Positions 1 to 29,168 are shown, counted from the stretch's first letter. The stretch is 64,000 bases of DNA from Candidatus Liptonbacteria bacterium (GCA_016204385.1 JACQKW010000015.1:29882-93881); one strand, 5' to 3'. Notes: a model not told the origin generated them from the letters alone. Made by a program: numbers and translations.

Positions 1-1752
1 GATTTCCCTGAACACTTCGGTGGGAATCCGCACTTTCCCCGATTCTTTGAGCCGCTCTTTTCCCCGCTTTTGCTTCTTCCACAACTTCATCTTCCTCGAA
101 CGGTCGCCTCCGTAGAGATAACCCGTCACGTCTTTCTTGAGCGCCGCAATCGTCTCGCGCGCGATGATCCTGCCTTTCGCCTGCGCCTGGATCGCCTGCG
201 CGAACTGCTGGGCGGGAAGGAGCTGCTTCAATTTCTCCACGCTCGCGCGCGCCTCGCGATCAAGGTCATCGCTCGCAACCACCCTCGTGAGCGCGGGCAC
301 CACGTCCCCGGCAATCAAAATCTCCAATTTCTCCACGTGCGCCTCGTCATATCCGTCGAGTTCGTAGCTGAACGACGCAAATCCCGCAGTGGCGGATTTG
401 AGCTGATCGTCAAAGTCTCGGAGCAATTCGGCAAGCGGCATGCGCGCGGTGAGAAGAAGCTGGGGCCCGATGTTGCGCGTATCGAGAAGAGAGAGGCCGA
501 ACGCAGTTGCAACTCCGAGCACTGCGGGCATATGGGCAGGCGGGGTAAGTATTTCAAGGCGTATCATGGGCTCGCGCACCGAGTCGTATTTCTCGGGGAA
601 ATCGCTCGCCTGCGTCACCACGTACTCGGCATTCGAGGCGCGCACGCGGTATGCAACAGACGGAAAACTCGTGAGAAACTCGACCCCGAACTCGTCGCGG
701 AGGCGGCTCGCAGTAATATCGAGATGGAGCTGGCCAAGAAAACCGACCTTGTACCCCCGCCCAAGGGCCTCATTCGCCTCGGGCTCGATCAAAAGCGCGG
801 GATCCGAGAGCCGCAGTTTTGAGAGCGCGAGCTGCAGCTCTTCAAACTCGCTTCCCCCCGAGGGATACATGGAAATGAACACCGCCGCGGCCGGCTCGCG
901 ATAGCCGGGAAGCGGATTCCCTTTCGGGTTATCGGACAGAGTGTCGCCGATCTTCACGAGGTCCGCTTCCTTCAGTCCGGTGGCAACATATCCGATCTCG
1001 CCGAAAGAGATTTCCCCCGTGCCGCGAAGCTCCGGAAAAAATTTGCCGACTTCTTTCACTCTGAATTGGGTGCCCGTGGCAATGAGCGCGGCGCGCCCGC
1101 CGCCCGCGAGCGTACCGCCATGCGCGCGGATATACGCAAGGATCCCTTTGTGCTCATCGTAGAGCGAGTCAAACACGAGCGCGCGAAACTCCGCGCCACC
1201 GCCCTGCGGCGGAGGGACTCTGTCGAGAACCGCGTCAAGCAGCGCCTCCACCCCTTCGCCCGTCTTTGCTGAAACCTGGAGCACGTCGCGTTCGGGCACG
1301 CCGAGGAGTTCCGCGACCGACGAAACCAGTTTTTCTTTTTCCGGCGTACCAAGGTCAATCTTGTTTATGGCGCCGACGATCGTGAGTCCCGAATTTTTCG
1401 CGGCGCGGAAATTCGAGAGTGTCTGCGCCTGAATGCCCTTCGTGGCGTCCACAAGAAGAATCGCGCCCTCAACCGCCGCAAGCGCGCGCGAGACCTCGTA
1501 TGAAAAATCCGAATGTCCCGGCGTGTCAATGAGGTTCATTGTGTACTCGGCTCCTCGGCTCCGATATCGCATGGTGACGGGAGCCATTTTTATGGTGATG
1601 CCGCGCTCCCGTTCAAGTTCAAGCTGATCGAGATATTGCGGCCGCATCTGCCGCGCGGGAACCGTGCCGGTCACCTCAAGAAACCTGTCCGCGAGCGTTG
1701 ATTTTCCCGCATCCACGTGCGCAATAATAACGAAATTCCGTATTGATTTCAT
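1..1752 (-). CDS. lepA: Elongation factor 4 (LepA), C-terminal end cut by the window edge
   Basis: Absent from the ORF track because it runs off the window. Translating the minus strand from ATG at 1752 gives MKSIRNFVIIAHVDAGKSTLADRFLE...IDTPGH...NKIDL and a C-terminal GYLYGGDRSRKMKLWKKQKRGKERLK block, typical of LepA. Confidence 0.9.
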   Translation of the reverse strand, partial: MKSIRNFVIIAHVDAGKSTLADRFLEVTGTVPARQMRPQYLDQLELERERGITIKMAPVTMRYRSRGAEYTMNLIDTPGHSDFSYEVSRALAAVEGAILLVDATKGIQAQTLSNFRAAKNSGLTIVGAINKIDLGTPEKEKLVSSVAELLGVPERDVLQVSAKTGEGVEALLDAVLDRVPPPQGGGAEFRALVFDSLYDEHKGILAYIRAHGGTLAGGGRAALIATGTQFRVKEVGKFFPELRGTGEISFGEIGYVATGLKEADLVKIGDTLSDNPKGNPLPGYREPAAAVFISMYPSGGSEFEELQLALSKLRLSDPALLIEPEANEALGRGYKVGFLGQLHLDITASRLRDEFGVEFLTSFPSVAYRVRASNAEYVVTQASDFPEKYDSVREPMIRLEILTPPAHMPAVLGVATAFGLSLLDTRNIGPQLLLTARMPLAELLRDFDDQLKSATAGFASFSYELDGYDEAHVEKLEILIAGDVVPALTRVVASDDLDREARASVEKLKQLLPAQQFAQAIQAQAKGRIIARETIAALKKDVTGYLYGGDRSRKMKLWKKQKRGKERLKESGKVRIPTEVFREI

Positions 1753-1767
1753 GCTCAAAAATGGTTG

Positions 1768-3840
1768 CTATTCCAACCTCGAGAACGTAAGCGGGATTCT
1801 CACGGTGCCCGCGGGGTCGCTCGAAGAATATTCGAATACCGGAAGTTTATTCTCCTTCCACACGTACCCTATGGGGGCATTGATCGCAAAATGGTACGAC
1901 GCGCTGCTTCCGCTCTGCTTTTGAAAGATGAATTCGTATGGTGCGCCGTCCTCTACCGGAGCGAAGAGACGGTGTTCGTAGTCGAGCGTGATCGTGTCGG
2001 ATTCCCCGCGCGGAACCCTCGACCACACCCCGAATGCGTGCTTTCCGTATTCTTCGGAACCTAGGATGGTGGGATAGTTTAGATATTCTCGCGCAGTCGA
2101 CTCGATCCGCGCCACATCCGGATCCGTAAGATACCCCCGCGCCTCGTAATCCACCAATGGGCGGAGTTCCTTCCGAATGCCCCCTTCTGCATGGGTAAGA
2201 GTAACCGAAGGGGGCGTATATATTTTTATGTAGTTTTGATTGGCCGCACGATACCACGAGGGGTCGCTCGATGATCCTCGATGCGACCGTGTGATTTGGA
2301 CGTGATCCGATACCGTGCCGTCGGACTCTATTTGGCTCTGGAACACTATCTTCTGCTCCATCACAAGGTCCGTTTTCCCGCCGCCGATATTTGCGTTCAC
2401 CGCCGCGAAGTAATCCCCGTTGAAGTTCGGTGCAAGCGCGGCGACGGTTCCCGTCCATCCGTGAAAGTCGAAAAACCCGTTGAGTGCGGGATCTTTGAAA
2501 TACACCATCACATCCCGTTCCTCAAGCCATCGTTCGAACGGGGTGAGCCCGATATCCTCGAGCGATCGCGACGCAAGCTTGGAACGGACCGCGTCGGCAA
2601 ACTCTTGCAGGAACGCTTTTGGGTTTTGATCTTTTCTGGAGCGGCTCTCCTCAATATGCGATTGGATCTCCCGCAAGAAATTCTCACTGGTCAGCGTGCG
2701 TTTGCTCGACGAAAGCTCGATGGGGCCCGTACTCTCAAGCACGTCGCTCACCACTCGGGGAGAAATGGCGATGACTCCGTCGAAAGTAACGCCCCGGGAC
2801 GCATACAGGCGGGACAATTCGAAAAACTCAGCGAGTTTTCGCGCGGATAGGGAGAAATCAAAAAACCAATTCGCATCGGCAAGGCGCCACCATTTTTCAA
2901 TCCCAAAAAACTGCTTCGGCGGGATGATCGCGGGGGCGAACGCACGATCGGGCTCATTAATGTCGTGGATGCTCGCGAGCGTGAGATTCCCCCCGCTGAG
3001 CGTAAGGTCGGCATAACTCCCCACAAACCCGCCGCCGGGCCGCATTTCAGACGTGTTATGAAACAGCACCGCGATATGGCGCTCCCCGGGGGCGCTTAAA
3101 AAACCGATGAGCGCATCCAAAAAATCCCGCGAGCGATTCACATTGAGCTGAAGAGGCAGGAATGCGGATGTATCAACCGGTACCGCCGATTTGAGCTTCA
3201 GCGAAGCGGCGGCGAGGCCGTCCCCGGTCTCCGCAATATTCGCGAGCGTGCGGCGCGCTTCTTTGAGGTCTTCGATGAATTGCGCGCCGTTCCCGTGTAG
3301 CATGTACGGAAGCCATCTGATCCTCAAATTGACAAGCTGTTCAAGAAGCGAAAGCGAGGAGCCGGTAATGGTCTTCAGATGCCCCAATGCGGAAGACAGA
3401 TTTTTGAACACAGGGAGTATGTCAAGCAACCCCGCGGGTCCTGGAGCGGGATTGTTTCGCGAAGCGAAATATTCCTCAATGTTCTGATTCGCTTCCAAAA
3501 AGTCCTTGTGGGCGCCCGCGGGATCGAGTTCGTCGAGCTTTTCGACCGCGGACTGAAACTGCGAAATGCCTTTTGCCGCGGAATCGAGCAGCCGTCCCCC
3601 TTCCCGATACGCGGAGAAGAACACCGCGCCCGCCACGGCGGCGACCAAAATAAAAAACACGAGGAATGCGTGCGCGGGGCGCTTGGATCCCGCTCCCGCT
3701 CTCTCCGCTCGGGGCGCTTCGCCGCCCTGCGCCGCAAATCTCGCGATCTTATCCACGCGGATTTCGTGCCCTTCACCGCCCTCCACCCGCACCACATCTA
3801 CCACGGTATCGGGAACGCGTTTCTCGTATCCGTCAGTCAT
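1768..3840 (-). CDS. DUF4012-family membrane-anchored protein
   Basis: 690-aa ORF with an N-terminal TM helix (AFLVFFILVAAVAGAVFF). The FHNTSEMRPGGGFVGSYADLTL block is as I recall for DUF4012. Confidence 0.7.
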   Translation of the reverse strand: MTDGYEKRVPDTVVDVVRVEGGEGHEIRVDKIARFAAQGGEAPRAERAGAGSKRPAHAFLVFFILVAAVAGAVFFSAYREGGRLLDSAAKGISQFQSAVEKLDELDPAGAHKDFLEANQNIEEYFASRNNPAPGPAGLLDILPVFKNLSSALGHLKTITGSSLSLLEQLVNLRIRWLPYMLHGNGAQFIEDLKEARRTLANIAETGDGLAAASLKLKSAVPVDTSAFLPLQLNVNRSRDFLDALIGFLSAPGERHIAVLFHNTSEMRPGGGFVGSYADLTLSGGNLTLASIHDINEPDRAFAPAIIPPKQFFGIEKWWRLADANWFFDFSLSARKLAEFFELSRLYASRGVTFDGVIAISPRVVSDVLESTGPIELSSSKRTLTSENFLREIQSHIEESRSRKDQNPKAFLQEFADAVRSKLASRSLEDIGLTPFERWLEERDVMVYFKDPALNGFFDFHGWTGTVAALAPNFNGDYFAAVNANIGGGKTDLVMEQKIVFQSQIESDGTVSDHVQITRSHRGSSSDPSWYRAANQNYIKIYTPPSVTLTHAEGGIRKELRPLVDYEARGYLTDPDVARIESTAREYLNYPTILGSEEYGKHAFGVWSRVPRGESDTITLDYEHRLFAPVEDGAPYEFIFQKQSGSSASYHFAINAPIGYVWKENKLPVFEYSSSDPAGTVRIPLTFSRLE

Positions 3841-3892
3841 CGCGCTACCATTCTACAATTTCAAAGAGCGCTCGAAAAGCCGGCAGGGCACG

Positions 3893-4735
3893 CTATTTGA
3901 AGAACACGCGGCGCGGAACGCGAAAGTCTATGTATTCGAAATTTCGCTTCGGATGCTCGGCGAGGATACGCGAGAGTGTCTCGCGCGCGTCGGTCGGCAG
4001 AAACCGAAGACTGAAGAAAAGCGCCGGCCCGTCGTGCGTGCGGATCTCCACCTCCTCGCGACTCAAATCCGCGATCTTGATCTCCCGAATGCCGAAGTCT
4101 GAAGCGGCGGCGACTTCAAGAATTGCGAGCAGGTTCGGCACGAACGCGTCCGGAAGTATTTTTTTTCCCAGCACGCGATCGGTCTGCGAATAATCGTTCA
4201 CCACGGGGATGAGGTTGCCCTCGGCGGCGAACGTACTTTCGAACTTTACCCCTTCGCGATCGAACCATGCGCACGCAGTCGGCGCATATGCCTCGCCGGT
4301 TCGCAGCTCGCGCGGATCACGCTCGGACTGTATGCACCATATGCCGACGGGAATCCGCGTGTCTGCAGAAAGCACTACCGTGCGCCTTCGAAAATCCTTT
4401 TCCACGCGGACGGTTTTAAAGATCGGCGATGCGGTAAGCGCCTCCGGCGATACCCTGCGAGGCCACCCAAGCATATGACCAAACCCGAATACCCTTGCCC
4501 GAAAACTTTGTCCGAATTGAGTTTTTACGAACTCGATCAGGCGTTCGCCCTCGAGCCGCCCCGAAATCAATACGTGAACGTTTTGGACGTCAAAAAGAGA
4601 TAATCGGAAAAGAACCCCGTAGAAGGCGAGGGTGAGGGCGGAGAGAAACAAAAAGGCGGAAACTATCCGAACGAGTTTCCTCCTCCTCATCCGCCGCGCT
4701 CGAATTTCGGCAAAGTCCGTGCCGCTTCGCGCCAT
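3893..4735 (-). CDS. FtsQ-like cell division protein (POTRA-type), tentative
   Basis: 280-aa ORF with a basic N-terminus, one TM helix and an extracytoplasmic domain. Size and layout are FtsQ-like; there is no strong motif. Confidence 0.45.
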   Translation of the reverse strand: MARSGTDFAEIRARRMRRRKLVRIVSAFLFLSALTLAFYGVLFRLSLFDVQNVHVLISGRLEGERLIEFVKTQFGQSFRARVFGFGHMLGWPRRVSPEALTASPIFKTVRVEKDFRRRTVVLSADTRIPVGIWCIQSERDPRELRTGEAYAPTACAWFDREGVKFESTFAAEGNLIPVVNDYSQTDRVLGKKILPDAFVPNLLAILEVAAASDFGIREIKIADLSREEVEIRTHDGPALFFSLRFLPTDARETLSRILAEHPKRNFEYIDFRVPRRVFFK

Positions 4736-5872
4736 CTATGTGAGCACCCGTTCCATGAGGGGGTTGAGCCGGGTTAAAAATTCGTAATGGATGGTTCCTG
4801 AAGCCCTTGCCGCGTCGTCCACCGCACGTTCTGACCTTGCGTCCTTGCCGATGATGGTTGCCGTGTCGCCTACGCGGCAACGAATCCCCGTTGCGTCAAC
4901 GGTCACTAAATCCATTGAAACCCTCCCGAGTACCCTGGCAGAACGGCCATTGATGAGCACGATCCCTGTACTTGAGAGCGACCGCGGGAAACCGTGCCAA
5001 TATCCTATTGGCAATACGGCTATTTTGGTCGGACGCGAAAGGCGCTCGGCCAAATCATAGCCGACGTAATCTCCCGGCGCGAGGAACTTAATTTCGCTTA
5101 TCATGGTCCGCCAGCTCAAGACCGGACGCAGTTTTATCATGGGCAGCTGGATTTCAAGCTCTTTCGAAGGGTAGAGGCCGTAGAGGCCGATACCCACGCG
5201 CACCGCATCCAGATGATACTTTTTGCCGAGTAGGGTGGCGCCGGTCGCCGCGCAATGTTGTATAAGAGGCCGCGCAGGCGTGTCAAATCCCTTGTTCCGA
5301 AGAAGTCCGCAGAGATCCGAAAATAGCGCGTACTGCTTCTCGGTGAATGTCGGGTAATTCACGTCTTTTGCGGAGGCGAAATGGGTATAGACGCCGCGGA
5401 ACGATTCTCCGAGCTTCTTTAAATGGCGGAAAATTTTCGGCACGTCGTGCGGGGAGAATCCTTGGCGATGCATCCCGGTATCTATCTTGAGATGGAAATC
5501 GGGCGCTCGGGCACATCGCATGAGCGCGCGGAGGGCGTCGTGATTCGAAATGCTCACGGTAAGACCCTCAGACGCCGATCGATCGTAGAGATCGGGCAGC
5601 GTGGGTCCTAAAATTAAAATGGGCTTCCGGATGCCGAACTCTCTCACACGAATACCCTCAACTGCGCTATCAACGCAGAATCCGTCCACGCGGTTCTCGA
5701 CAAGACCAGAAAAAAGCGTGAGTCCGTGGCCGTACGCGTTCGATTTCACCACCGCCAAAAGTTTCACGTCCGGACCAATGATACTCCGGAATGTTTCGCA
5801 GTTCTTTTGTATCGCGCTCCGATCGATCTCAACCCACGTCCGCAAGCTACGAGATAACTTTCGCGCCGACAT
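4736..5872 (-). CDS. alr: Alanine racemase
   Basis: VVKSNAYGHG PLP-binding motif with an Alr-like layout. The ORF track extends to 5929; the ATG at 5872 (MSARKLSRSLRTWVEIDRSAI) is the more likely start. Confidence 0.85.
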   Translation of the reverse strand: MSARKLSRSLRTWVEIDRSAIQKNCETFRSIIGPDVKLLAVVKSNAYGHGLTLFSGLVENRVDGFCVDSAVEGIRVREFGIRKPILILGPTLPDLYDRSASEGLTVSISNHDALRALMRCARAPDFHLKIDTGMHRQGFSPHDVPKIFRHLKKLGESFRGVYTHFASAKDVNYPTFTEKQYALFSDLCGLLRNKGFDTPARPLIQHCAATGATLLGKKYHLDAVRVGIGLYGLYPSKELEIQLPMIKLRPVLSWRTMISEIKFLAPGDYVGYDLAERLSRPTKIAVLPIGYWHGFPRSLSSTGIVLINGRSARVLGRVSMDLVTVDATGIRCRVGDTATIIGKDARSERAVDDAARASGTIHYEFLTRLNPLMERVLT

Positions 5873-7160
5873 ATTTTTGGAGCACTTTGGGAATTTTAAT
5901 TTTGCCTTCCTTCGTCTGGAAATTCTCAAAAATTGTGATCAGCGTCCGGCCGACGGCAAAGGCGGTGCCATTCAGCATATGCACAAATTCAATGTCCTTG
6001 CCGGTGCGATACTTTACGCTCAGCCGCCGCGCTTGGTAGTCGGTCGTGTTAGAAGCTGAATGCGTCTCGCGGTATTCGCCCTTGCCGTCCCGCTGGCCCG
6101 GCATCCACGTCTCAATATCGAACTTGGCGGCCGCCGGATCGCCGAGGTCTGCCGTGCACATCTCGATAACTCGGTACGGAAGCTCAAGTTTTTGCATAAG
6201 GTGCTCTTGAACCCCTAAGAGCAACCGGTGCTCGTGAACCGAGGTTTCCGGTTTAACAAAACTGAACATCTCGAACTTATCAAACTGATGCACGCGCAGA
6301 ATCCCTTTGGTGTCCTTGCCGTAACTCCCGGCTTCTCTCCGGAAACACGTGGAGAACCCCACATACCGCCGCGGCAAGTCCTTTTCCTCGAAAACCTCAT
6401 TCTGGTGCATCGGCCCCAATGCCTGCTCTGAGGTGCCGGCTAAATAGAGATCGTCTTTTTCTATTTTGTAGACTTCTTCCCCGCCGCGTTCAAGATACCC
6501 CATACCAGACATAGATTTTTCGTTCAAGAGCACCGGAGGAATCACCGGAATAAAAGGCGTGTCGGAAACTGTGAGGCCGTTTTTTTTGATAATGTGCGTT
6601 AAGATTTTCTGATCGGCGAGCGTCTCTAAAACCAGTTGTCCCAGCGCAAACTCAAGCCGCGCCGCCGCTCCAAGAAGATACCCGAACCGGCTGCCCGCGA
6701 CTTTCGCCGCCCGTTCAACGTCAATTAATCCAAGGCTCTCGGCGAGCGTCAGATAATCTTTAGGCGGGAAAGAAAATTTTGATTTCTCTCCGACTTCGCA
6801 GAGCACCTTATTATCCTTCTCGCTTTTCCCGATGGGTGCGTCCGGGAGCGGGAGATTCGGGATTTTTCGCCACACAGCCATCCGCCGCCCCTCGATCACC
6901 TCGAGTTTCACCTCCTCGGATTTGATGTCTTCCTTATTTTTCTTTGCCGCCTCGATATTCCGCGCCTCGGCTTGCCCCGAGTGTACCGAGTGGGAAAATT
7001 TCTTCTGCCCCGCCCGCAAATCATCGAGTTTTTTCGTAATCTCGCGCCACTCGCGGTCGAGCTTCAAAAATTCGTCCACGAGCTCCGGTTGAACGCCCTT
7101 CTTTTCTATGCCGCGTTTGATGCGGTCCGGCTCCTCGCGGAGGAGTTTTATATCAATCAT
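5847..7160 (-). CDS. serS: Seryl-tRNA synthetase
   Basis: 437 aa. MIDIKLLREEPDRIKRGIEKKG N-terminal coiled-coil arm and class II core (FRREAGSYGKDTKGILRVHQF). Its ATG overlaps the RT stop codon (ATGA at 7157-7160). Confidence 0.92.
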   Translation of the reverse strand: MIDIKLLREEPDRIKRGIEKKGVQPELVDEFLKLDREWREITKKLDDLRAGQKKFSHSVHSGQAEARNIEAAKKNKEDIKSEEVKLEVIEGRRMAVWRKIPNLPLPDAPIGKSEKDNKVLCEVGEKSKFSFPPKDYLTLAESLGLIDVERAAKVAGSRFGYLLGAAARLEFALGQLVLETLADQKILTHIIKKNGLTVSDTPFIPVIPPVLLNEKSMSGMGYLERGGEEVYKIEKDDLYLAGTSEQALGPMHQNEVFEEKDLPRRYVGFSTCFRREAGSYGKDTKGILRVHQFDKFEMFSFVKPETSVHEHRLLLGVQEHLMQKLELPYRVIEMCTADLGDPAAAKFDIETWMPGQRDGKGEYRETHSASNTTDYQARRLSVKYRTGKDIEFVHMLNGTAFAVGRTLITIFENFQTKEGKIKIPKVLQKYVGAKVIS

Positions 7161-7161
7161 T
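7126..7161. repeat. Direct repeat copy 1 (serS 5' end), left boundary of the DGR cassette
   Basis: tccggctcctcgcggaggagttttatatcaatcatt. It is 35/36 identical to 9930-9965, at an offset of 2804 bp. Confidence 0.9.
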
Positions 7162-8257
7162 GACTCCTATCATACCTTAATTTTTCTTCATCGTGAAGCA
7201 TTGCGGAAACGTCCGTGTGAAGTTTTCGGGTGTTGCCGTGTGCTAATAGTCCGAAATAAGAATTGAATGTTTCGGGCGTGTGGCTTGCCATAATTTTCTT
7301 CATCATTCTTCGCCTCGTGCTCGTACGCAACACCCGATGGTCGGGAAAATGTACCCATCCCAAAAAATCAACGCCCGACGCAAGCGTTTTAATAAAAACC
7401 TTATCGGGGTGGAGGGTAAGTTGTAACTTTTCGCGCAGGAATTCTCGGATCAGCAACGTGTTTTGCTCGAGCCAGACGCGGTCTTTGGAAAGAAATATAA
7501 AGTCGTCGGCATACCGGAGGTAATACCGCGCCTTAAGCCCGTGTTTTACAAATTGATCAAATTCATTCATATAGACATTCACGAGAAGCTGTGAGGTGAG
7601 ATTGCCAAGTGGAAGGCCTGCCCACCCGAAGCTGTGCGAAGGCGGGCCGGCGCCTGGCCGCATGGACGAAAAACTGCTAATAATCTCTTGGAGAAGTTCT
7701 ATAATTTCTCCGTCGCGAATATAACTCCGCAAAATTCTCATAAGAATCGTGTGGTTAATATTTGCGAAGAATTTTCTGATGTCGCATTTCAAAACCCAGC
7801 AGGTTCTCGTATTGTTTTTGCTCACTTTGTAGGCAAATATGCGGAAGCGGTTTAATGCTCTATGCGTCCCCTTCTCCTTTCTGCATGAGAAAGAATCGGC
7901 AATAAAAGCCTTGTCAAAAAATGGATAGAGTACTCGATAGATGGCGTGGTGCACGAGGCGGTCGCGGACGCTCGCCTTGTGGATGTTCCGCGGTTTGGGA
8001 TCGGAGATATTGAACGCTTGATAGCCGCCGTGGCGATAGGTATGATAGACAAGATCATCGTGGAGCAGAAAGAGGTTATCGATAAGATGCAATGAAAATT
8101 CTTGAACATCGCGCTTGCCGCGTTTTCCTTTCACAAACTCCCTCCAAGCCTCCAAAAAATTCTCTACGCTCGCAATATCCGCAAAGTTTTTAGCAAATTG
8201 GATTTTCATATTTCTTTTCCCATGAACGCCCCCCCCCCGCTTCAATTTACCCATCAT
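7157..8257 (-). CDS. DGR-type reverse transcriptase
   Basis: 366-aa ORF. RT motifs include LPLGNLTSQLLVNVYMNEFD (the DGR-specific [LIV]GxxxSQ) and YADD (RYADDFIFL), next to a TR/VR pair. The likely true start is ATG at 8209 (MKIQFAKNF...). Confidence 0.9.
   Translation of the reverse strand: MMGKLKRGGGVHGKRNMKIQFAKNFADIASVENFLEAWREFVKGKRGKRDVQEFSLHLIDNLFLLHDDLVYHTYRHGGYQAFNISDPKPRNIHKASVRDRLVHHAIYRVLYPFFDKAFIADSFSCRKEKGTHRALNRFRIFAYKVSKNNTRTCWVLKCDIRKFFANINHTILMRILRSYIRDGEIIELLQEIISSFSSMRPGAGPPSHSFGWAGLPLGNLTSQLLVNVYMNEFDQFVKHGLKARYYLRYADDFIFLSKDRVWLEQNTLLIREFLREKLQLTLHPDKVFIKTLASGVDFLGWVHFPDHRVLRTSTRRRMMKKIMASHTPETFNSYFGLLAHGNTRKLHTDVSAMLHDEEKLRYDRSQ
8229..8238. repeat. C10/G10 homopolymer tract between the RT and avd starts
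   Basis: Ten consecutive C on the plus strand, between the probable RT start (8209) and the avd start (8268). Confidence 0.9.
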
Positions 8258-8267
8258 TCAGCATCTT

Positions 8268-8603
8268 GTGGCAACTTACAAAGTCTGGCATGAATTTTTG
8301 CCGCACATTCCCAAAGACGCACGGTACACGCTGGGGACAAAAATAGATGGGCTGTTCGTAGAAACGGTAGAGTTGATTTTCACGGCGACGTATCTTGGTA
8401 AAAGCCAGAAATTTCCTTACGTGCAAAACGCGGCAACAAAACTTGATCTTGTAAAATTCTTCCTTCAAATTCTCTGGGAAATCAACGCACTTGATAATAA
8501 AAAGTATATCCGCATTTCTGAAAAACTAAACGAGATCGGCAGGATGCTCGGCGGCTGGAACAGGCAGTTAAACAGGGAAAACCCCGCAAGGAGCGGGGAA
8601 TAA
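8268..8603 (+). CDS. avd: Avd-like four-helix-bundle protein (DGR accessory variability determinant)
   Basis: 111 aa with a GTG start. YKVWHEFLPHIPKDARYTLGTKIDGLF...KLDLVKFFLQILWEINALDNKKYIRISEKLNEIGRMLGGW resembles the four-helix-bundle/S23-IVS family to which Avd belongs. It sits between RT and TR but on the opposite strand. Confidence 0.7.
   Translation: MATYKVWHEFLPHIPKDARYTLGTKIDGLFVETVELIFTATYLGKSQKFPYVQNAATKLDLVKFFLQILWEINALDNKKYIRISEKLNEIGRMLGGWNRQLNRENPARSGE
8582..8598 (-). terminator. GC hairpin plus U-tract 11 nt 3' of the TR (possible TR-RNA 3' end or structural element)
   Basis: ccccgc-aagga-gcgggg. On the minus strand it is followed by TTTTCCCTGTT. It lies inside the last avd codons on the other strand. 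Confidence 0.4.
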
Positions 8604-8609
8604 AGAGAT

Positions 8610-8744
8610 TTGCGGACGGCGGCAAAGCGGTAGTTCGAGTTCCACTCGTTGTCGAACCAGTTCAGGTTCAGGTTACGCTTCGAACCGTTCCTGTCGAGGT
8701 ACGCCACAGTGCGGTTGCCGTTCGGATTCCGCCACACGGAACCA
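8610..8744 (-). repeat. DGR template repeat (TR)
   Basis: 135 nt, 124/135 identical to 9110-9244. All 11 differences are T on the plus strand of the TR, which is A on the minus (coding) strand. It encodes an Asn(AAC)-rich sequence. Confidence 0.92.
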
Positions 8745-9000
8745 TCGTACAAAATATCGCCTGCGCCACTGCCCTTCGAATACTCTTGGGGTTGTATCGT
8801 ATTCGGGATCTCGAAAAATCCTAATCCCTTAATATTTTGCACCAAGTATCTTTATTTTTGAGGAAAGAGAGAATATCTCTAGCCATAAGCGTACCCATAG
8901 CTATTCCCTATTCAGTGTTTCCGGAATTCGACTGTTGTGAACCGTGGCCCACAGCTTGTGTTGAGTCTACTATCCAAATTCAAATTATCACATGGTGCAG

Positions 9001-9043
9001 AAATGAAAAGCCCGTGCAGAAGACCGAAGTCCTGTGCACGGGC
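9001..9043 (-). terminator. Rho-independent terminator downstream of the DGR target gene
   Basis: Minus strand GCCCGTGCA...TGCACGGGC, followed by TTTTCATTT. Confidence 0.6.
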
Positions 9044-9082
9044 CAAGTTCCCAAGGGACAAAGAATCTCAAAGCGTTGAGGA

Positions 9083-9103
9083 TTCAGAGTCCTAAGGTCT
9101 GAA
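9083..9103 (-). promoter_or_regulatory. Short hairpin immediately 3' of VR and the stop codon
   Basis: ttcaga-gtcctaagg-tctgaa (6-bp stem) starting 3 nt after the stop. DGR targets are known to use a hairpin downstream of VR, but this one is weak. Confidence 0.3.
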
Positions 9104-9105
9104 AG

Positions 9106-9723
9106 CTACTTGCGGACGGCGGCAAAGCGGTAGTGCGAGAACCACTCGTTGTCGAACCAGTGCAGGCGCAGGTCACGCTTCGAACCGTACCTGACGAGGT
9201 ACGCCACAGTGCGGTAGCCGTGCGGATTCCGCCACACGGAACCAAGAGCGATGATCGGGAACTCGCGCTGCTTCTCGGGATACTCCGCGCCGAAGGCGAG
9301 TAGCTCGGGAAGGGTTGCGGGACGGAGACCACGCGCGTCGAGCTCGCAGAGCGCGTTGTCCGACGAAACCCTCCGGTTGAGATGGACAAGCTCGATCGCG
9401 ACTTCTGCCGTGCCTTTCTGTGTAGTCGGGAAGTTCTTGGAGGTGATGTCGGAATTCGTCCAGTTGTACTTCCCTGCCGCGACCATCTCCTCGACGGAGT
9501 GAGCGTAGTCGAGGGTGAGGCGGAACACGTTCTTCGCCCCTTCCATGATCGCGACAAGCGCATCCGCGATCTTCCCGACCGGAACATCACCGTCGTCGGT
9601 TACGAGCTGGTGAATCTGCTCGTCTGAAACCTTCCGCTCGCGGAGCGCACGGACAAGTTTGTCCGCGAACCCAGCGATCCAGCCCGCCCCTGAAACGATT
9701 GCCGTTACGTCCTTCCGTGCCAT
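9106..9723 (-). CDS. DGR variable (target) protein, VR at the C-terminus
   Basis: 205-aa ORF with strong SD GAGGAGGAAGTC-ATG. The C-terminal 45 codons are the VR (GSVWRNPHGYRTVAYLVRYGSKRDLRLHWFDNEWFSHYRFAAVRK). I see no signal peptide or TM helix. Confidence 0.85.
   Translation of the reverse strand: MARKDVTAIVSGAGWIAGFADKLVRALRERKVSDEQIHQLVTDDGDVPVGKIADALVAIMEGAKNVFRLTLDYAHSVEEMVAAGKYNWTNSDITSKNFPTTQKGTAEVAIELVHLNRRVSSDNALCELDARGLRPATLPELLAFGAEYPEKQREFPIIALGSVWRNPHGYRTVAYLVRYGSKRDLRLHWFDNEWFSHYRFAAVRK
9110..9244 (-). repeat. DGR variable repeat (VR)
   Basis: Counterpart of the TR. 9 codons are changed (8 of 9 TR AAC Asn codons plus one GAC). The 3'-terminal ~25 nt (GC-rich, ...GCCGCCGTCCGCAA) is identical to the TR, like an IMH. 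Confidence 0.92.
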
Positions 9724-9789
9724 GACTTCCTCCTCTTCGGCTTGCCCCTCATTCCGACCTTATGCCGGAATCCCAGGCGTGCCAGTTTT

Positions 9790-9835
9790 GGTTACAGCCT
9801 TGAATCCGTGAGCGAGCGGACTCAAAGCTGTAACC
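9790..9835 (-). promoter_or_regulatory. Long 5'-UTR hairpin of the DGR target mRNA
   Basis: 19-bp stem with an 8-nt loop. Two positions are C.A/A.C on the plus strand but G.U on the minus-strand transcript. Confidence 0.55.
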
Positions 9836-9874
9836 AAGAAAACCGCAAGTTATCGATTTTTAAGGTACCCGGGC

Positions 9875-9904
9875 ATTGTAGCATATAAACTATATTCTTG
9901 TCAA
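9875..9904 (-). promoter_or_regulatory. Consensus sigma70-type promoter of the DGR target gene
   Basis: Minus strand TTGACA-N18-TACAAT. The block ATGCTACAATGCCC is shared with the promoter at 20568-20597. Confidence 0.6.
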
Positions 9905-9929
9905 GTTCTGGTATGGGGGGTGAACTTTC

Positions 9930-9964
9930 TCCGGCTCCTCGCGGAGGAGTTTAATATCAATCAT
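9930..9964 (-). pseudogene. Relic serS 5' fragment (first 11 codons, MIDIKLLREEP)
   Basis: ATG at 9964 followed by the same codons as the real serS. The frame then diverges and stops after 24 codons inside the target-gene promoter. Confidence 0.8.
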
Positions 9965-9965
9965 T
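9930..9965. repeat. Direct repeat copy 2 (relic serS 5' end), right boundary of the DGR cassette
   Basis: tccggctcctcgcggaggagtttaatatcaatcatt. The single difference from copy 1 is a synonymous Ile codon (ATA/ATT). Confidence 0.9.
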
Positions 9966-10006
9966 AAAATTAATCATATACCAAACCTGTCTGCTCCTCG
10001 TAACCG

Positions 10007-10015
10007 CCCCCCCCC
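10007..10015. repeat. C9 homopolymer tract
   Basis: Nine consecutive C next to the hairpin at 10016-10040. Confidence 0.9.
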
Positions 10016-10040
10016 AACCTGCCCGCCATGCGGGCAGGTT
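10016..10040 (+). terminator. Hairpin plus T-tract in the relic-serS/thrS intergenic region
   Basis: aacctgcccg-ccatg-cgggcaggtt, then ttcattttc. No plus-strand gene lies upstream, so its role is unclear. Confidence 0.35.
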
Positions 10041-10094
10041 TTCATTTTCTCTATAGCTTTCAAAAAATCCGCTACAATCCTATAATCTTAGAAC

Positions 10095-11876
10095 ATGGCA
10101 AAGAAGTCCTCCGCATCGAATCTCGAGCATATCCGCCATTCTTTGGCACATCTCCTCGCGGCGGCAGTCTTGAGGAAATTCCCCAAGGTAAAGCTTGGCA
10201 TCGGGCCCGTAATTGAAGACGGGTTTTATTATGATTTCCTCCTCCACGGCAATGAGAAATTTTCTCCCGATGATTTGCGAGAATTCGAGAAGGCGATCCG
10301 TGATTTCATTCGCGACGATTTGAATTTTATCGGCAAAAAAGTCTCGGCCGCCGAAGCGAAAAAGCTTTTCGCGGGACAGCCTTTTAAACTCGAACTTATC
10401 AAGGATTTTGTAAAAGAAAAGCAAAATCTCACCACCTACCGCACTGGAGACATATTTACTGACCTGTGCCGCGGCGGACATGTGAAGAATACGAAAGAAA
10501 TCAACCCCGACGCATTCAAACTCACGAAAATTGCGGGCGCCTACTGGAGGGGCGACGAAAAAAATTCCCAGCTCCAACGGATCTACGGCGTGGCGTTTGC
10601 GACCAAGAAAGAACTCGGAGAGTACCTCGCAATGCTTGAGGAAGCGCGAAAGCGGGACCATAAAGTCCTGGGTCCCGATCTCGATCTTTTCACATTTTCC
10701 GAACTTGTGGGCTCGGGACTCCCTTTGTGGACTCCGAAGGGCACGATTCTTCGGGACCTCCTCGATAATTTTGTCTGGGAACTCCGCGCACGCCGCGGCT
10801 ACGAGCGGGTGGATATCCCGCACATCACAAAAAAGGAACTCTACGTGCGGAGCGGCCATTGGGAGAAATTTAAGAACGAGCTTTTTAAAATCGTGACTCG
10901 CGAGGGGCACCTCCTCGCCATAAAACCGATGAACTGCCCCCACCACACGCAAATCTACGCGCGGCGAAAGTGGAGCTACCGTGAACTGCCCCAACGATAC
11001 GCCTCCACCACAAAAGTCTACCGCGACGAACAAACGGGCGAGCTTGCGGGCCTTGCACGCGTACGCTCGATCACGCAGGACGATGCGCATTCCTTCTGCC
11101 GCAAATCGCAGATTGCGGGCGAGATGTCGAGTATCTGGGACATTGTAGAGGAGTTTTATGCGGGCTGCGGATTCCCGAATCTTGAAGTGCGTCTTTCGTT
11201 CCATGACCCGAAGCAGCCGAAGAAATATCTTGGGTCGCCCGCAGTATGGAAAAAGGCGGAGGCGGAACTCGCGGCGCTCGCACAATCGCGATTAGGACCT
11301 GCGTTTGAGAGAAAAGTGAAGGTTGACATGGGCGAGGCGGCGTTCTACGGGCCGAAAATTGATTTCATTGCCAAAGATTCGCTCGGCAGGAATCTGCAGG
11401 TCGCCACGATCCAGCTTGATATGAATATGCCCGAGCGATTCCGTCTTGCGTGCGTGAATGAGAAAGGGAAAGACGAGGGGATTTTCATGATTCACGCGGC
11501 AATCATGGGTTCGATCGAGAGGTTCCTCGCCGCGTTCATCGAGCATACTGGGGGCAAGTTTCCTGTGTGGCTCTCTCCCGTGCAGGCGGAAATTATAAAC
11601 GTCGGCTCCGGCCAGAGGAAGTATGCGGAAAAAATATTTAAAGGTTTGAAAACGGCAAGTGTCCGCGCGCGGCTCTCCGACGAGAATCTGACCGTCGGCA
11701 AGCGCATCCGCGAAGCGGAACTCCAAAAGATTCCCTACGTCCTTGTAGTCGGAGAAAAGGAAGAAGCCGCAGGCACCGTGAATGTCCGGCATTACCGGCG
11801 AGGCCAGGAAGGAGAAATAAAATTCGAAGCGTTCATTCAAAAAGTGATGGACGAGATCACGCGAAAAACGGTCTAG
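10095..11876 (+). CDS. thrS: Threonyl-tRNA synthetase (no N-terminal TGS domain)
   Basis: 593 aa. HIRHSLAHLLAAAV...GIGPVIEDGFYYDF editing-domain start, then class II core and anticodon-binding domain. TATAAT lies 8 nt upstream of the ATG. Confidence 0.92.
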   Translation: MAKKSSASNLEHIRHSLAHLLAAAVLRKFPKVKLGIGPVIEDGFYYDFLLHGNEKFSPDDLREFEKAIRDFIRDDLNFIGKKVSAAEAKKLFAGQPFKLELIKDFVKEKQNLTTYRTGDIFTDLCRGGHVKNTKEINPDAFKLTKIAGAYWRGDEKNSQLQRIYGVAFATKKELGEYLAMLEEARKRDHKVLGPDLDLFTFSELVGSGLPLWTPKGTILRDLLDNFVWELRARRGYERVDIPHITKKELYVRSGHWEKFKNELFKIVTREGHLLAIKPMNCPHHTQIYARRKWSYRELPQRYASTTKVYRDEQTGELAGLARVRSITQDDAHSFCRKSQIAGEMSSIWDIVEEFYAGCGFPNLEVRLSFHDPKQPKKYLGSPAVWKKAEAELAALAQSRLGPAFERKVKVDMGEAAFYGPKIDFIAKDSLGRNLQVATIQLDMNMPERFRLACVNEKGKDEGIFMIHAAIMGSIERFLAAFIEHTGGKFPVWLSPVQAEIINVGSGQRKYAEKIFKGLKTASVRARLSDENLTVGKRIREAELQKIPYVLVVGEKEEAAGTVNVRHYRRGQEGEIKFEAFIQKVMDEITRKTV

Positions 11877-11884
11877 AAAAGACG

Positions 11885-11913
11885 AAGGGCTCCTATGATG
11901 ACAAGGAGCCCTT
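11885..11913 (-). terminator. Terminator hairpin between convergent genes
   Basis: aagggctcct-atgatgaca-aggagccctt. The minus strand is followed by CGTCTTTTC. Confidence 0.5.
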
Positions 11914-11949
11914 GATGGTGGCGGGAAACTGCGAGGAAGGTGAAAAATC

Positions 11950-12333
11950 CTAGAAGACGATGAGTTGGCCGCTCTCGACCGCGAGGCGCCGGGTACTCCG
12001 GCGCACGGTCACCCCCTTGGGGTGCGTTGCGACCACGAGCCGGGCCTTCTTGCCCCGCTCTGAGAAGCCGACGATCTTGGCCTCCACGCGGGGGTGCTTC
12101 CGGCTCGAGTAGGGCACTCTTTGCCCCACCCTGAAGCCGAAACGCTTGGTCTCCGATGGCGCCATTGGGATGCCGCCGCCCTCCACAGAGAGCGACACCG
12201 TGGCGTACCGCCGCGCCCGTTGACGGTAGCCGTCCGCGATGAGGACGGTCCCGGTCACGGCGAAAAGCACCATGAGAACATACTCCCAGACCCGAAACAT
12301 CTCAAACAAATTCGGCATATTACCCCCTCTCAA
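11950..12333 (-). CDS. Hypothetical small membrane protein
   Basis: 127-aa ORF with one TM helix (WEYVLMVLFAVTGTVLIA) and a basic C-terminal domain. The start may be M6 (12318). Confidence 0.5.
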   Translation of the reverse strand: MRGGNMPNLFEMFRVWEYVLMVLFAVTGTVLIADGYRQRARRYATVSLSVEGGGIPMAPSETKRFGFRVGQRVPYSSRKHPRVEAKIVGFSERGKKARLVVATHPKGVTVRRSTRRLAVESGQLIVF

Positions 12334-12378
12334 AAAGTTGAATTAGAACTAAAGTTAGTATAACATAGTGATATACAT

Positions 12379-13377
12379 ATGTCAAGTCCCCCTAAAAAAC
12401 CGCCCTTCAATGTAATTCAGGGCAGGAAAATACTCGTCATTTTAGGCCCGACCGCGAGCGGAAAATCCGCCCTTGCCGTGAAACTCGCCCTTCGACTAAG
12501 CACGGTGCAGGCGAAGAAAAAATATGGAATACGCGGCGCTGAAATCATCTCGGCCGATTCCCGGCAGGTCTACAAAGGACTTGATATCGGAAGCGGAAAG
12601 ATCACGAAAAAAGAAATGGGGGGTATCCCCCATCACCTCTTGGATGTCGCATCACCGAAACGAACGTTTACGGTCGTGGAATACCAGAAATTGGGAGCAC
12701 GGGCAATCGAAAAAATACTCCAAAAAAAGAAAATCCCCATCATCGTCGGCGGCACCGGATTTTATATTGACGCGCTCATCTACGGATGGAAACTCCCGCA
12801 AATAAAACCGGATTCCCGGATTCGAAGGGCGCTCGCGGCAAAGTCCGCTCACGAACTATACCGGACACTCGCGCAGATCGACCCGCGCCGCGCGGCAACC
12901 ATCGACCGCTATAATAAACGCCGGCTCGTGCGCGCCTTGGAAATTATCGTCCACACCGGCAAGCCGGTGCCGCGCCTAAGAAAAGGCGGCCCTCCTTATT
13001 CCAATGTTCTTAAGAACATTGGAATAAGGAATTCTCGCATCTTAAAAATAGGAATCCGTATCCCCGCCGAGGAGTTAACGCGGCGGATAAAAAAGCGATT
13101 ACTCGCCCGTATCCGGCAAGGGCTGGTTCGCGAGGTGAAAAACCTTCGCGCACGAGGCGTAAGCTGGAGGCGCCTCGAAGGCCTCGGATTGGAATACCGT
13201 TACGTGGGCCGCTACCTCCGAGGGCTCATCACAAAAGAGGCGATGCTGCAAACGCTCGAGAAGGAAATCCGAAACTACGCGAAGCGGCAAATGACGTGGT
13301 TTAAAAAAGACAACCAAGTGATCTGGCTCGAGAGACCGCGCGATGCCTTGAAAATCGCAGAAGAGTTTCTCAAGTAA
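12379..13377 (+). CDS. miaA: tRNA dimethylallyltransferase
   Basis: ILGPTASGKSALAVKLA P-loop and ISADSRQVYKGLDIGSGKIT...IPHHLLD motifs. Confidence 0.9.
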   Translation: MSSPPKKPPFNVIQGRKILVILGPTASGKSALAVKLALRLSTVQAKKKYGIRGAEIISADSRQVYKGLDIGSGKITKKEMGGIPHHLLDVASPKRTFTVVEYQKLGARAIEKILQKKKIPIIVGGTGFYIDALIYGWKLPQIKPDSRIRRALAAKSAHELYRTLAQIDPRRAATIDRYNKRRLVRALEIIVHTGKPVPRLRKGGPPYSNVLKNIGIRNSRILKIGIRIPAEELTRRIKKRLLARIRQGLVREVKNLRARGVSWRRLEGLGLEYRYVGRYLRGLITKEAMLQTLEKEIRNYAKRQMTWFKKDNQVIWLERPRDALKIAEEFLK

Positions 13378-28100: not shown

Positions 28101-28457
28101 ATGAATTACCGGCCCCTTCGCGTCGGAAAACTCATTCGCGAAGAACTTAACAAACTCATTCAGAGGGAGGTTGAAATTTCCGGCGCGCTTGCGACCATCA
28201 CCGACGTCGCGATTGACAAAAAGCTCGAACGGGCGCGGGTATATGTAAGCGTGCTCCCGATGGAAAAATCGGCGGGCGCGCTCGACCTATTCAAGAAATC
28301 AGAGGGTCGCCTGCAATACCTCCTCGGAAGAAAGCTCAACATCAAGCCGATGCCGCACATTGAATTTGTGCCCGATCGCGGCCCGGAGCATGCGGCAGAG
28401 GTTGAAAAAATTCTTATAAAAGACCAGAATAACGAGAGCGGCCACGTGGCGAAGTAG
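28101..28457 (+). CDS. rbfA: Ribosome-binding factor A
   Basis: 118 aa. RVGKLIREELNKLIQREV...ITDVAIDKKLERARVYVS, with infB-rbfA synteny. The 3' end overlaps tRNA-Cys by 18 nt. Confidence 0.85.
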   Translation: MNYRPLRVGKLIREELNKLIQREVEISGALATITDVAIDKKLERARVYVSVLPMEKSAGALDLFKKSEGRLQYLLGRKLNIKPMPHIEFVPDRGPEHAAEVEKILIKDQNNESGHVAK

Positions 28458-28512
28458 CTAACGCGACGGTCTGCAAAACCGTTATACATGGGTGCAATTC
28501 CCATCGTGGCCT
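28440..28512 (+). tRNA. tRNA-Cys (anticodon GCA)
   Basis: GGCCACG...ACGGT-CTGCAAA-ACCGT...CGTGGCC with discriminator U. CCA is not encoded. Confidence 0.85.
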
Positions 28513-28607
28513 CAACGAATTTTTCTGAAAGTCACAACGCTTTCGAATTGGAAGACGCGCTATTAGGCATATTGATTTTTCGTCTACCATATGATATGAT
28601 AAGGTTG

Positions 28608-29096
28608 ATGCGAAAAAGATCGTGGACGGAAACACAATTAAAAAAAGCTGTCGAGAACTCGTTCAGCTTTCGGCAGGTTTTAGCAAAACTTAATCTCCGT
28701 GAGGCGGGTGGAAATTATGAGCAAGTAAAAAAATACATCAAGGAGTTTGAAATAGATATGAAACATTTTAAGGGCCGAGCCTGGAACGCTGGTATGCGTG
28801 GCATAGGGAAACCAATTATCCCTCTCGAAAAAATCCTGGTAAAAGACAATTACTTTCAAAGTTTTAAGCTAAAGAAAAGGTTATTTGCAGCCGGAATGAA
28901 GCCGCGTTATTGTGAAGAATGCGGCTGGGCAAAGTCTACTAACGACGGGTATCTTCCACTCGAACTTGATCATATAAACGGAGATAGACACGATAATAGA
29001 CTGGAAAATTTAAGAGTGCTTTGTCCCAATTGCCACAGCTTAAAACCAACACACCGAGGTCGAAATAGGAAAAGATTTGTCCGGGTGGCGAAATAG
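28608..29096 (+). CDS. Free-standing HNH endonuclease
   Basis: LELDHINGDRHDNRLENLRVLCPNCHS HNH motif. The ORF track starts at 28488, inside the tRNA; TTGATT-N17-TATGAT lies 7 nt before the ATG at 28608 (MRKRSW...). AT-rich relative to its neighbours. Confidence 0.8.
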   Translation: MRKRSWTETQLKKAVENSFSFRQVLAKLNLREAGGNYEQVKKYIKEFEIDMKHFKGRAWNAGMRGIGKPIIPLEKILVKDNYFQSFKLKKRLFAAGMKPRYCEECGWAKSTNDGYLPLELDHINGDRHDNRLENLRVLCPNCHSLKPTHRGRNRKRFVRVAK

Positions 29097-29168
29097 GTAA
29101 ACGCGCAACACTTAAAATGTTGTGGGCTCAAAAGGCTCTTGTCGGTTCGATTCCGACCCCGGGCACCA
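29079..29168 (+). tRNA. tRNA-Leu (anticodon UAA), CCA encoded
   Basis: GTCCGGGTGGCGAAATAGG...CAACA-CTTAAAA-TGTTG, a long variable arm, then GGTTCGATTCC...CCCGGGCACCA. Confidence 0.9.

Follow-up and report, generated by a model that had tools for sequence, protein, structure and literature searches.

The start of serS, the gene for seryl-tRNA synthetase, occurs twice in a 64,000-nucleotide stretch of DNA from Candidatus Liptonbacteria bacterium (GCA_016204385.1 JACQKW010000015.1:29882-93881; hereafter the window, with positions counted from its first nucleotide), and the two copies, which form a 36-nt direct repeat, bracket a diversity-generating retroelement (DGR). We conclude from the gene order of relatives that the DGR is an insertion at the start of serS and that in the ancestral state serS and thrS, the gene for threonyl-tRNA synthetase, stood back to back. 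We tentatively propose, with a probability of about 0.45, that the repeat is a recombination scar of the horizontal acquisition of the DGR, left by short-homology or homology-anchored integration, and we read it as something other than a classical transposon duplication.

On the plus strand the repeat occupies 7126-7161 and 9930-9965, an offset of 2,804 nt, and reads TCCGGCTCCTCGCGGAGGAGTTT[T/A]ATATCAATCATT in both copies, where T/A is the lone mismatch and 23 nt is the longest exact run that the copies share. Read on the minus strand, each copy consists of an A, ATG and a further 32 nt, corresponding to serS -1 to +35, and the mismatch sets ATA against ATT, both isoleucine codons, and is therefore synonymous. 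Copy 1 (7126-7161, minus strand) heads the working gene, a 437-aa open reading frame (ORF; 5847-7160, minus strand) with Seryl_tRNA_N and tRNA-synt_2b (class II core) domains, and also provides the stop codon of the DGR reverse transcriptase (RT). Copy 2 (9930-9965, minus strand) is a dead start in the native place, opening an ORF of only 24 codons, MIDIKLLREEPEKVHPPYQNLTRI followed by a stop, which ends within the promoter of the DGR target gene. No further match to the 36-mer with up to three mismatches was found in the whole 64 kb, 100 shuffles of the sequence gave zero matches, and neither repeat coincides with a tRNA or an Rfam element. Logan contigs from two sequencing runs (SRR12113384 and SRR12113383) correspond to window positions 1-8039, 9002-13022 and 8964-12050, each at 100% identity, and since they cover the repeat junctions, both junctions have been assembled independently. 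These results uphold the first-pass annotation, which had described a 36-bp repeat 2804 bp apart with a synonymous isoleucine mismatch, and had taken copy 1 as the true serS start and copy 2 as a relic.

The case for an insertion rests on relatives. Three relatives on long contigs, with SerS proteins approximately 65% identical, keep the order of the window, miaA-thrS(-)/serS(+)-alr-X-DUF4012-lepA (where X is an unknown gene), and in all three thrS and serS are directly divergent, approximately 1-208 nt apart according to the gene calls, with no DGR between them; the comparison of empty sites is thus one of gene order. In the window thrS lies at 10095-11876 on the plus strand and its ATG is 130 nt from the relic ATG, which is the native position of serS. 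The intervening divergent spacer (9966-10094) contains a run of nine C residues (10007-10015), a hairpin (10016-10040) and a thrS promoter, TTCAAA-16-TATAAT (10059-10086). The earlier proposals that the relic adjoins the ancestral thrS/serS spacer, and that the DGR arrived at the start of serS, are both borne out by this synteny and by the position of the relic. The deviant GC content of the RT gene (46%), avd (45%) and the target gene (61%), set against 53-54% in the flanking genes, agrees with a foreign origin of the DGR, and the target gene is preceded by a strong Shine-Dalgarno motif in a genome otherwise nearly devoid of such motifs. Closer relatives were sought by several routes: protein searches gave SerS sequences at 64-66% identity and an RT at 70% as the nearest, a scan of genome contigs with SerS reached 56% at best, and exact-protein look-ups returned only the same strain.

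Between the two copies lie 2,768 nt (7162-9929) that make up one complete DGR with no other content, as had been claimed earlier. The RT gene (7157-8257, minus strand) is an ORF of 366 aa with an RVT_1 match (E = 1e-24) and LGNLTSQ and YADD motifs; a conserved start (MKIQ...) at 8209 gives 350 aa, matching the NCBI protein record, and its thousands of relatives are annotated as retron-type or group II intron-type RTs. The avd gene (8268-8603, bAvd family, E = 2e-14), whose true start probably lies further upstream, is divergent from the RT gene, and here the earlier list of parts needs amending in that avd is on the plus strand, head to head with RT. The template repeat (TR; 8602-8744, minus strand) and the variable repeat (VR; 9102-9244, minus strand), which forms the 3′ end of the target gene, are 143 nt long and 90% identical, and 12 of their 12 differences fall at TR adenines. 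The target gene itself (9106-9723, minus strand) encodes 205 aa without a Pfam match and has homologues in related DGR loci; a hairpin followed by a run of T, resembling a terminator, lies downstream of it (9010-9043, minus strand), and its promoter, TTGACA-18-TACAAT with a TG (9875-9904, minus strand; 11 of 12 matches), starts 25 nt inside the left junction. Judged by its sequence, then, the element is a DGR in every respect that sequence can address, namely RT, an adenine-only TR/VR pair, a VR with its hairpin, and Avd. By analogy with known DGRs, the C-terminal VR of the target would be diversified through adenine-specific mutagenic retrohoming. Only RT, avd and the target gene are found inside the bracket, so that the reported lack of an integrase or transposase there stands, and integrase, transposase and recombinase Pfam domains were absent from approximately 45 ORFs scanned across the 64 kb, including all ORFs of at least 190 aa.

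Directly upstream of the target ATG is a conserved structured motif in the 5′ untranslated region (5′UTR; 9721-9783, minus strand) that is also found in four other loci (L016, 5735-5802; L061, 6559-6621; L071, 6392-6460; L085, 527-592). It spans approximately 65 nt, consisting of GGCAnGyCTGGGG, a hairpin and GTGAGGGGCrAGCC, after which come the Shine-Dalgarno motif and the target ATG, and it shows compensatory changes at five predicted base pairs; an Rfam scan at the gathering threshold did not detect it.

At the other end of the cassette, the RT stop codon is indeed supplied by the repeat and overlaps the serS start as ATGA. This is an overlap of 4 nt between different frames and not the translational fusion of RT and serS that had been described. 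It had also been suggested that serS now depends on read-through from the RT gene, which the sequence does not support, since a candidate promoter of its own, the sigma-70-like TTCACG-17-TATGAT (7169-7197, minus strand), is present in the 3′ end of the RT gene, where 8 nt separate its -10 box from the serS ATG. The same spacing is seen at the relic, where a TATGAT box (9973-9978, minus strand), at the position of the native serS promoter, ends 8 nt before the relic ATG, and spacings of 7-9 nt are also found at thrS (TATAAT), tmk, gyrB, infB, thyA (TATGAT) and the DUF4012 gene. The position of -10 boxes 7-9 nt from start codons, together with the near absence of Shine-Dalgarno motifs, suggests a genome in which most mRNAs lack a leader. 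We consider it probable that serS has kept or regained its own promoter and is transcribed as a leaderless mRNA from the TATGAT within the RT gene, and that the orphaned native promoter and relic start now read into the DGR. As a wider observation, many genes of the window have a TAnnnT box that ends 7-9 nt before the start and no Shine-Dalgarno motif (e.g., 10086/10095, 51437, 25093, 19626), and Shine-Dalgarno-like motifs are almost confined to two places, one at the target gene of the DGR and the other ahead of the working copy of serS.

Scars of this type were also sought at other DGRs. The family has more than 577 loci in JGI metagenomes alone, and the comparison set comprised 89 loci whose RTs are related (33-69% identical), 80 of them metagenomic and 9 viral. 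They were searched for repeats shared by the surroundings of the RT stop codon and the sequence preceding the target gene. Among 44 loci with enough flanking sequence, three stood out clearly (z-scores of 14-19), namely the window, L071 and L079, which adds to the window one more duplicated coding start (L071) and a bracket of 55 nt (L079). The 41 other loci held no convincing decayed scars, three of them being ambiguous (L066, with 16 exact nt within coding regions, L031 and L092), and there was none in L112, a contig of the same family in a 651-kb record.

In L071, which is Moranbacteria-like, the repeat ATGAAYAAACCCCTTCTCGAAAAAYTGAAAAAATG is found at 6138-6172 and 9135-9169 and consists of the ATG and the following 32 nt of xseA, the gene for the exonuclease VII large subunit, that is, 35 nt counted from the A of the ATG, compared with 36 nt (35 from the ATG) in the window. 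Its two mismatches are both synonymous, and the relic begins 1 nt past the stop of the upstream gene. Relatives in this clade, with XseA proteins 80-84% identical, include loci with a DGR directly upstream of xseA and without a relic (L105-108 and L081), as well as empty xseA sites on the contigs encoding XseA P0124 and P0125 (both from JGI 3300075153), P0128 (locus L109) and P0130 (locus L110). Within this one clade, two lineages have a DGR at xseA. The backbone of L071 (guaA, a membrane gene and xseA) resembles the empty contig with P0125, and homology with L105 carries on through the RT-xseA junction of L071. No relic was found in L105-108, where the similarity in a MAFFT alignment is weak.

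In L079 a repeat of 55 nt, 91% identical and without a third copy in the locus, surrounds a DGR that is interrupted by an IS481-type transposase insertion. The upstream copy lies 17 nt past the stop of a second, unrelated DGR RT and the downstream copy 22 nt past the stop of the bracketed RT. The position of the repeat after two different RTs, at 17 and 22 nt, is what would be expected if two alleles of a single site had become joined in tandem, and the arrangement has that appearance. Cassette homology between L079 and L031 starts 4 nt from the left junction that the repeat defines. Another feature of these cassettes is the motif TGTTCAGAAATTGRAT, which is found two to three times at the left end of related cassettes (L079, 5149-5327; L031, 547-680 and 3551-3578); a single copy is found at the 3′ ends of two unrelated RT genes, those of L031 and RT-A of L079.

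More generally, related DGRs tend to sit tightly packed just ahead of a host gene of the same orientation. The gene following RT is co-oriented in 48 of 60 distinct loci, often within 35 nt or overlapping, and in L112 the 3′ end of the RT gene overlaps the start of a SpoU methylase gene. L092 (region 7905-10339), an IMG/VR phage contig that also encodes a terminase, has a DGR belonging to this family whose RT stop overlaps the start of a large serine recombinase as ATGA, and the contig carries an imperfect repeat of approximately 40 nt (3931-3970 and 8988-9028). L027 and L065 have a thrS homologue 1.5-3 kb downstream of RT, in convergent orientation, and L061 has one 6.5 kb upstream, which may be due to chance or to a preference for this neighbourhood.

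Our proposal for the window is that the incoming DNA came from a related strain in which the DGR already lay directly upstream of a serS start, and that it would have integrated through that short serS homology. This could have happened by a single crossover of a circularised fragment, or by one end being anchored through homology in serS while the other end was joined illegitimately at serS +35. On this view the repeat would have its left edge at the ATG, where homology between donor and recipient begins, since the incoming DNA would carry the DGR flush against the same gene, and the right edge would be the illegitimate or closure junction. In the clade of L071, relic-free DGR alleles and empty alleles show that states of the donor type and the recipient type both exist there. 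Moreover, mismatches in the two coding repeats are synonymous in three of three cases, which fits allelic differences better than decay of a relic, under which a crude model gives such a result a chance of approximately 0.02-0.07. No conserved cassette termini were found.

A comparable process is known, as de Vries and Wackernagel are said to have described in 2002 homology-facilitated illegitimate recombination in natural transformation, which reportedly uses anchors of >150 bp and usually deletes recipient DNA. It has in common with our proposal one homologous and one illegitimate junction and the gain of foreign DNA between close relatives, but differs in that here the anchor is short and recipient DNA is duplicated.

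Several points weigh against this proposal. None of the 89 related DGR loci adjoins serS, as a donor allele would, and the closest SerS and RT are only 66% and 70% identical to those of the window. Both coding repeats have their right edge at precisely +35, a coincidence of the order of a few percent under the model. The two serS copies share a TATGAT at 8 nt, yet the 8 nt in between differ wholly (AGGAGTCA versus TAATTTTA), and no model accounts for these differing 8 nt between the TATGAT and the serS ATGs. Homology upstream of the two ATGs is not significant (local alignment p = 0.77, anchored p ~0.1), and sliding-window identity among L071, L105 and L109 around xseA shows no clear recombination tract. 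Regarding the 8-nt blocks themselves (7161-7168 and 9965-9972), that of the working copy resembles the block of the relative L102 (AGGGTCAT), and the block upstream of the working copy has marginal similarity to L100 and L102 (p ~0.03).

An alternative, which we regard as unlikely, is that the DGR is a discrete mobilisable cassette and that the repeat is a long target-site duplication made by a staggered cut and fill-in, the enzyme acting in trans or being unknown and possibly measuring a length of approximately 35 nt. The edges of the repeat are sharp, two unrelated hosts show the same length of 35 nt from the ATG at two unrelated genes, the bracket holds DGR parts only, and the left limit of the homology between L031 and L079 coincides with the junction, all of which would be expected of such a cassette. 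However, there is no transposase, and there are neither terminal repeats nor an inverted repeat between the two ends; the left ends of five cassettes (the window, L016, L071, L085 and L105) show no alignable sequence outside the 5′UTR motif, the third duplication is 55 nt long, and a scar is found in just three of 44 loci. Furthermore, the left edge is the ATG in both coding cases, which we estimate at ~0.003 for an insertion blind to position (assuming ~38 viable offsets), and the end of the insert would have to provide, by chance, a TATGAT at the native spacing. Duplications of tens of bp that flank inserted DNA are also produced by insertion sequences of the IS1634/IS1549 type, by non-LTR (long terminal repeat) retrotransposons and by Cas1-Cas2, the duplications being long or variable and the CRISPR ruler measuring approximately 30-36 bp, but none of those enzymes is encoded here.

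In a more specific form of mobility, DGR cassettes of this family in the candidate phyla radiation (CPR) would be mobile and would enter at gene starts in a measured manner, duplicating exactly the first 35 nt from the ATG. Such entry could involve the RT of the element itself and the 5′ end of a host mRNA, and we hold it to be distinctly improbable.

About equally doubtful is a site-specific integration in the 5′ end of serS, in which the two copies are attL and attR, the element brings a replacement start for the gene, and the integrase acted in trans or was lost from a larger element. A block of identity that ends exactly at a gene terminus, with synonymous differences only, is typical of an att site, and the repeat does begin at the gene terminus (relative to the ATG, at -1 in the window and 0 in L071). 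Elements that enter the end of a gene and carry a replacement end, such as SXT/R391 in prfC and phage 21/e14 in icd, share with the window the direct repeats at a gene end, the gene kept intact by the copy on the element side, and the synonymous differences. The occurrence of the same RT family on the phage contig L092, with its terminase and with the RT stop overlapping a serine recombinase start, also points in this direction. What sets the window apart from SXT/R391 and phage 21/e14 is that no integrase is found in the bracket or among the approximately 45 scanned ORFs, and that related cassettes differ in their target gene, the related DGRs lying at many different genes with 0 of 89 at serS. 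In addition, exact searches of a viral contig collection with both repeats gave no match, and a decayed larger element would find no room at such compact junctions, as the promoter begins 25 nt inside the left one and a stop codon overlaps the right one.

Very unlikely, in our view, is an insertion mediated by the RT, in which a nick at +35 primes reverse transcription of a leaderless serS mRNA as far as its 5′ end and the template is then switched to a DGR transcript, the duplicated copy thus corresponding to the first 36 nt of the mRNA. It would explain why the repeat begins at -1, where transcription is predicted to start, 8 nt past the TATGAT, and it would suit a genome that is apparently mostly leaderless. 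On the other hand, the insert holds the target promoter and 25 nt upstream of it, and so is not a transcript from that promoter, and xseA of L071 is not leaderless, lying 1 nt after the upstream gene and having Shine-Dalgarno-like motifs in its clade. DGR RTs are, moreover, known to make only short TR cDNAs (PMC6182149, PMC5703328). Finally, with empty shuffles and two independent Logan assemblies that match both junctions at 100%, the repeat can hardly be an assembly artefact or a product of chance.

Large surveys have reported that DGRs are often transferred horizontally and evolve as cassettes (PMC5758913, PMC8144416). The DGR of the window shares with the CPR set of these surveys (Wu et al., 2018, PMC5758913; Roux et al., 2021, PMC8144416) the RT, Avd, the adenine-only TR/VR pair and the C-terminal VR, as well as a patchy distribution and a GC content that deviates from that of the host. 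It differs from them in two ways: the footprint of the insertion is visible here, as a duplicated start of a host gene, and in this family avd lies in inverted orientation between TR and RT, the spacer holding a poly-G/C tract. Essentially all of the 80 metagenomic relatives keep the head-to-head layout of avd and RT. When the text of the two surveys was searched, flanking repeats and insertion footprints proved to be unmentioned (the terms 'direct repeat' and 'inserted' are absent), and a full-text literature search combining DGRs with target-site duplication returned nothing relevant.

The spacer tract deserves separate consideration. In the window it is a run of ten C residues (8229-8238, plus strand; G10 on the RT strand) in the divergent avd/RT spacer, and the true start of avd probably lies beyond it. 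Tracts of 7-14 G on the RT strand, or C on the avd strand, are present in this tiny spacer in 64 of 85 loci and are usually the lone G/C run of at least 7 nt in their locus. The avd frame is open across the tract, which would encode proline residues, and a start codon upstream of it (mostly ATG) has an open frame into the tract in all 62 of 62 distinct loci, being in frame with avd in only approximately one third of them. In the window the sole ATG upstream of the C10 tract (at 8222) is off the avd frame by one base as assembled, and C9 would yield MNAPPRFNLPIIQHL... instead. Two near-identical pairs of loci (L034/L035 and L063/L072) show a difference of one base in the tract that toggles avd in and out of frame. 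Six assemblies of another locus all have G10, and a look-up of the Avd product for tract polymorphism in the population of the window itself gave no record. The tract looks like a device of phase variation or transcriptional slippage that would control Avd and hence the activity of the DGR; homopolymer sequencing error is also possible. The 64 kb contain only one other G/C run of at least 8 nt, the C9 run of the thrS/relic spacer; it lies 42 nt upstream of the relic ATG and is absent from the corresponding spacers of the relatives L100, L102 and L103.

Elsewhere in the window, an ORF for an HNH endonuclease (28488-29096) lies between tRNA-Cys (28440-28513) and tRNA-Leu (29079-29168), overlapping both annotations.

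DGRs are viewed as domesticated, immobile retroelements, and yet they are patchy across strains and especially abundant in CPR bacteria. The scar, with its matching empty sites, provides the first concrete junctions towards a mechanism for the transfer of DGRs from genome to genome, and it can be searched for systematically. If measured entry at gene starts were the true explanation, these would be the first DGRs shown to move as units. The side observation of a tract that may control Avd may matter more than the scar. For annotators, short relic gene starts may adjoin such cassettes; and for the organism, the arrangement means that an essential gene can stay active with a DGR placed right against its start.

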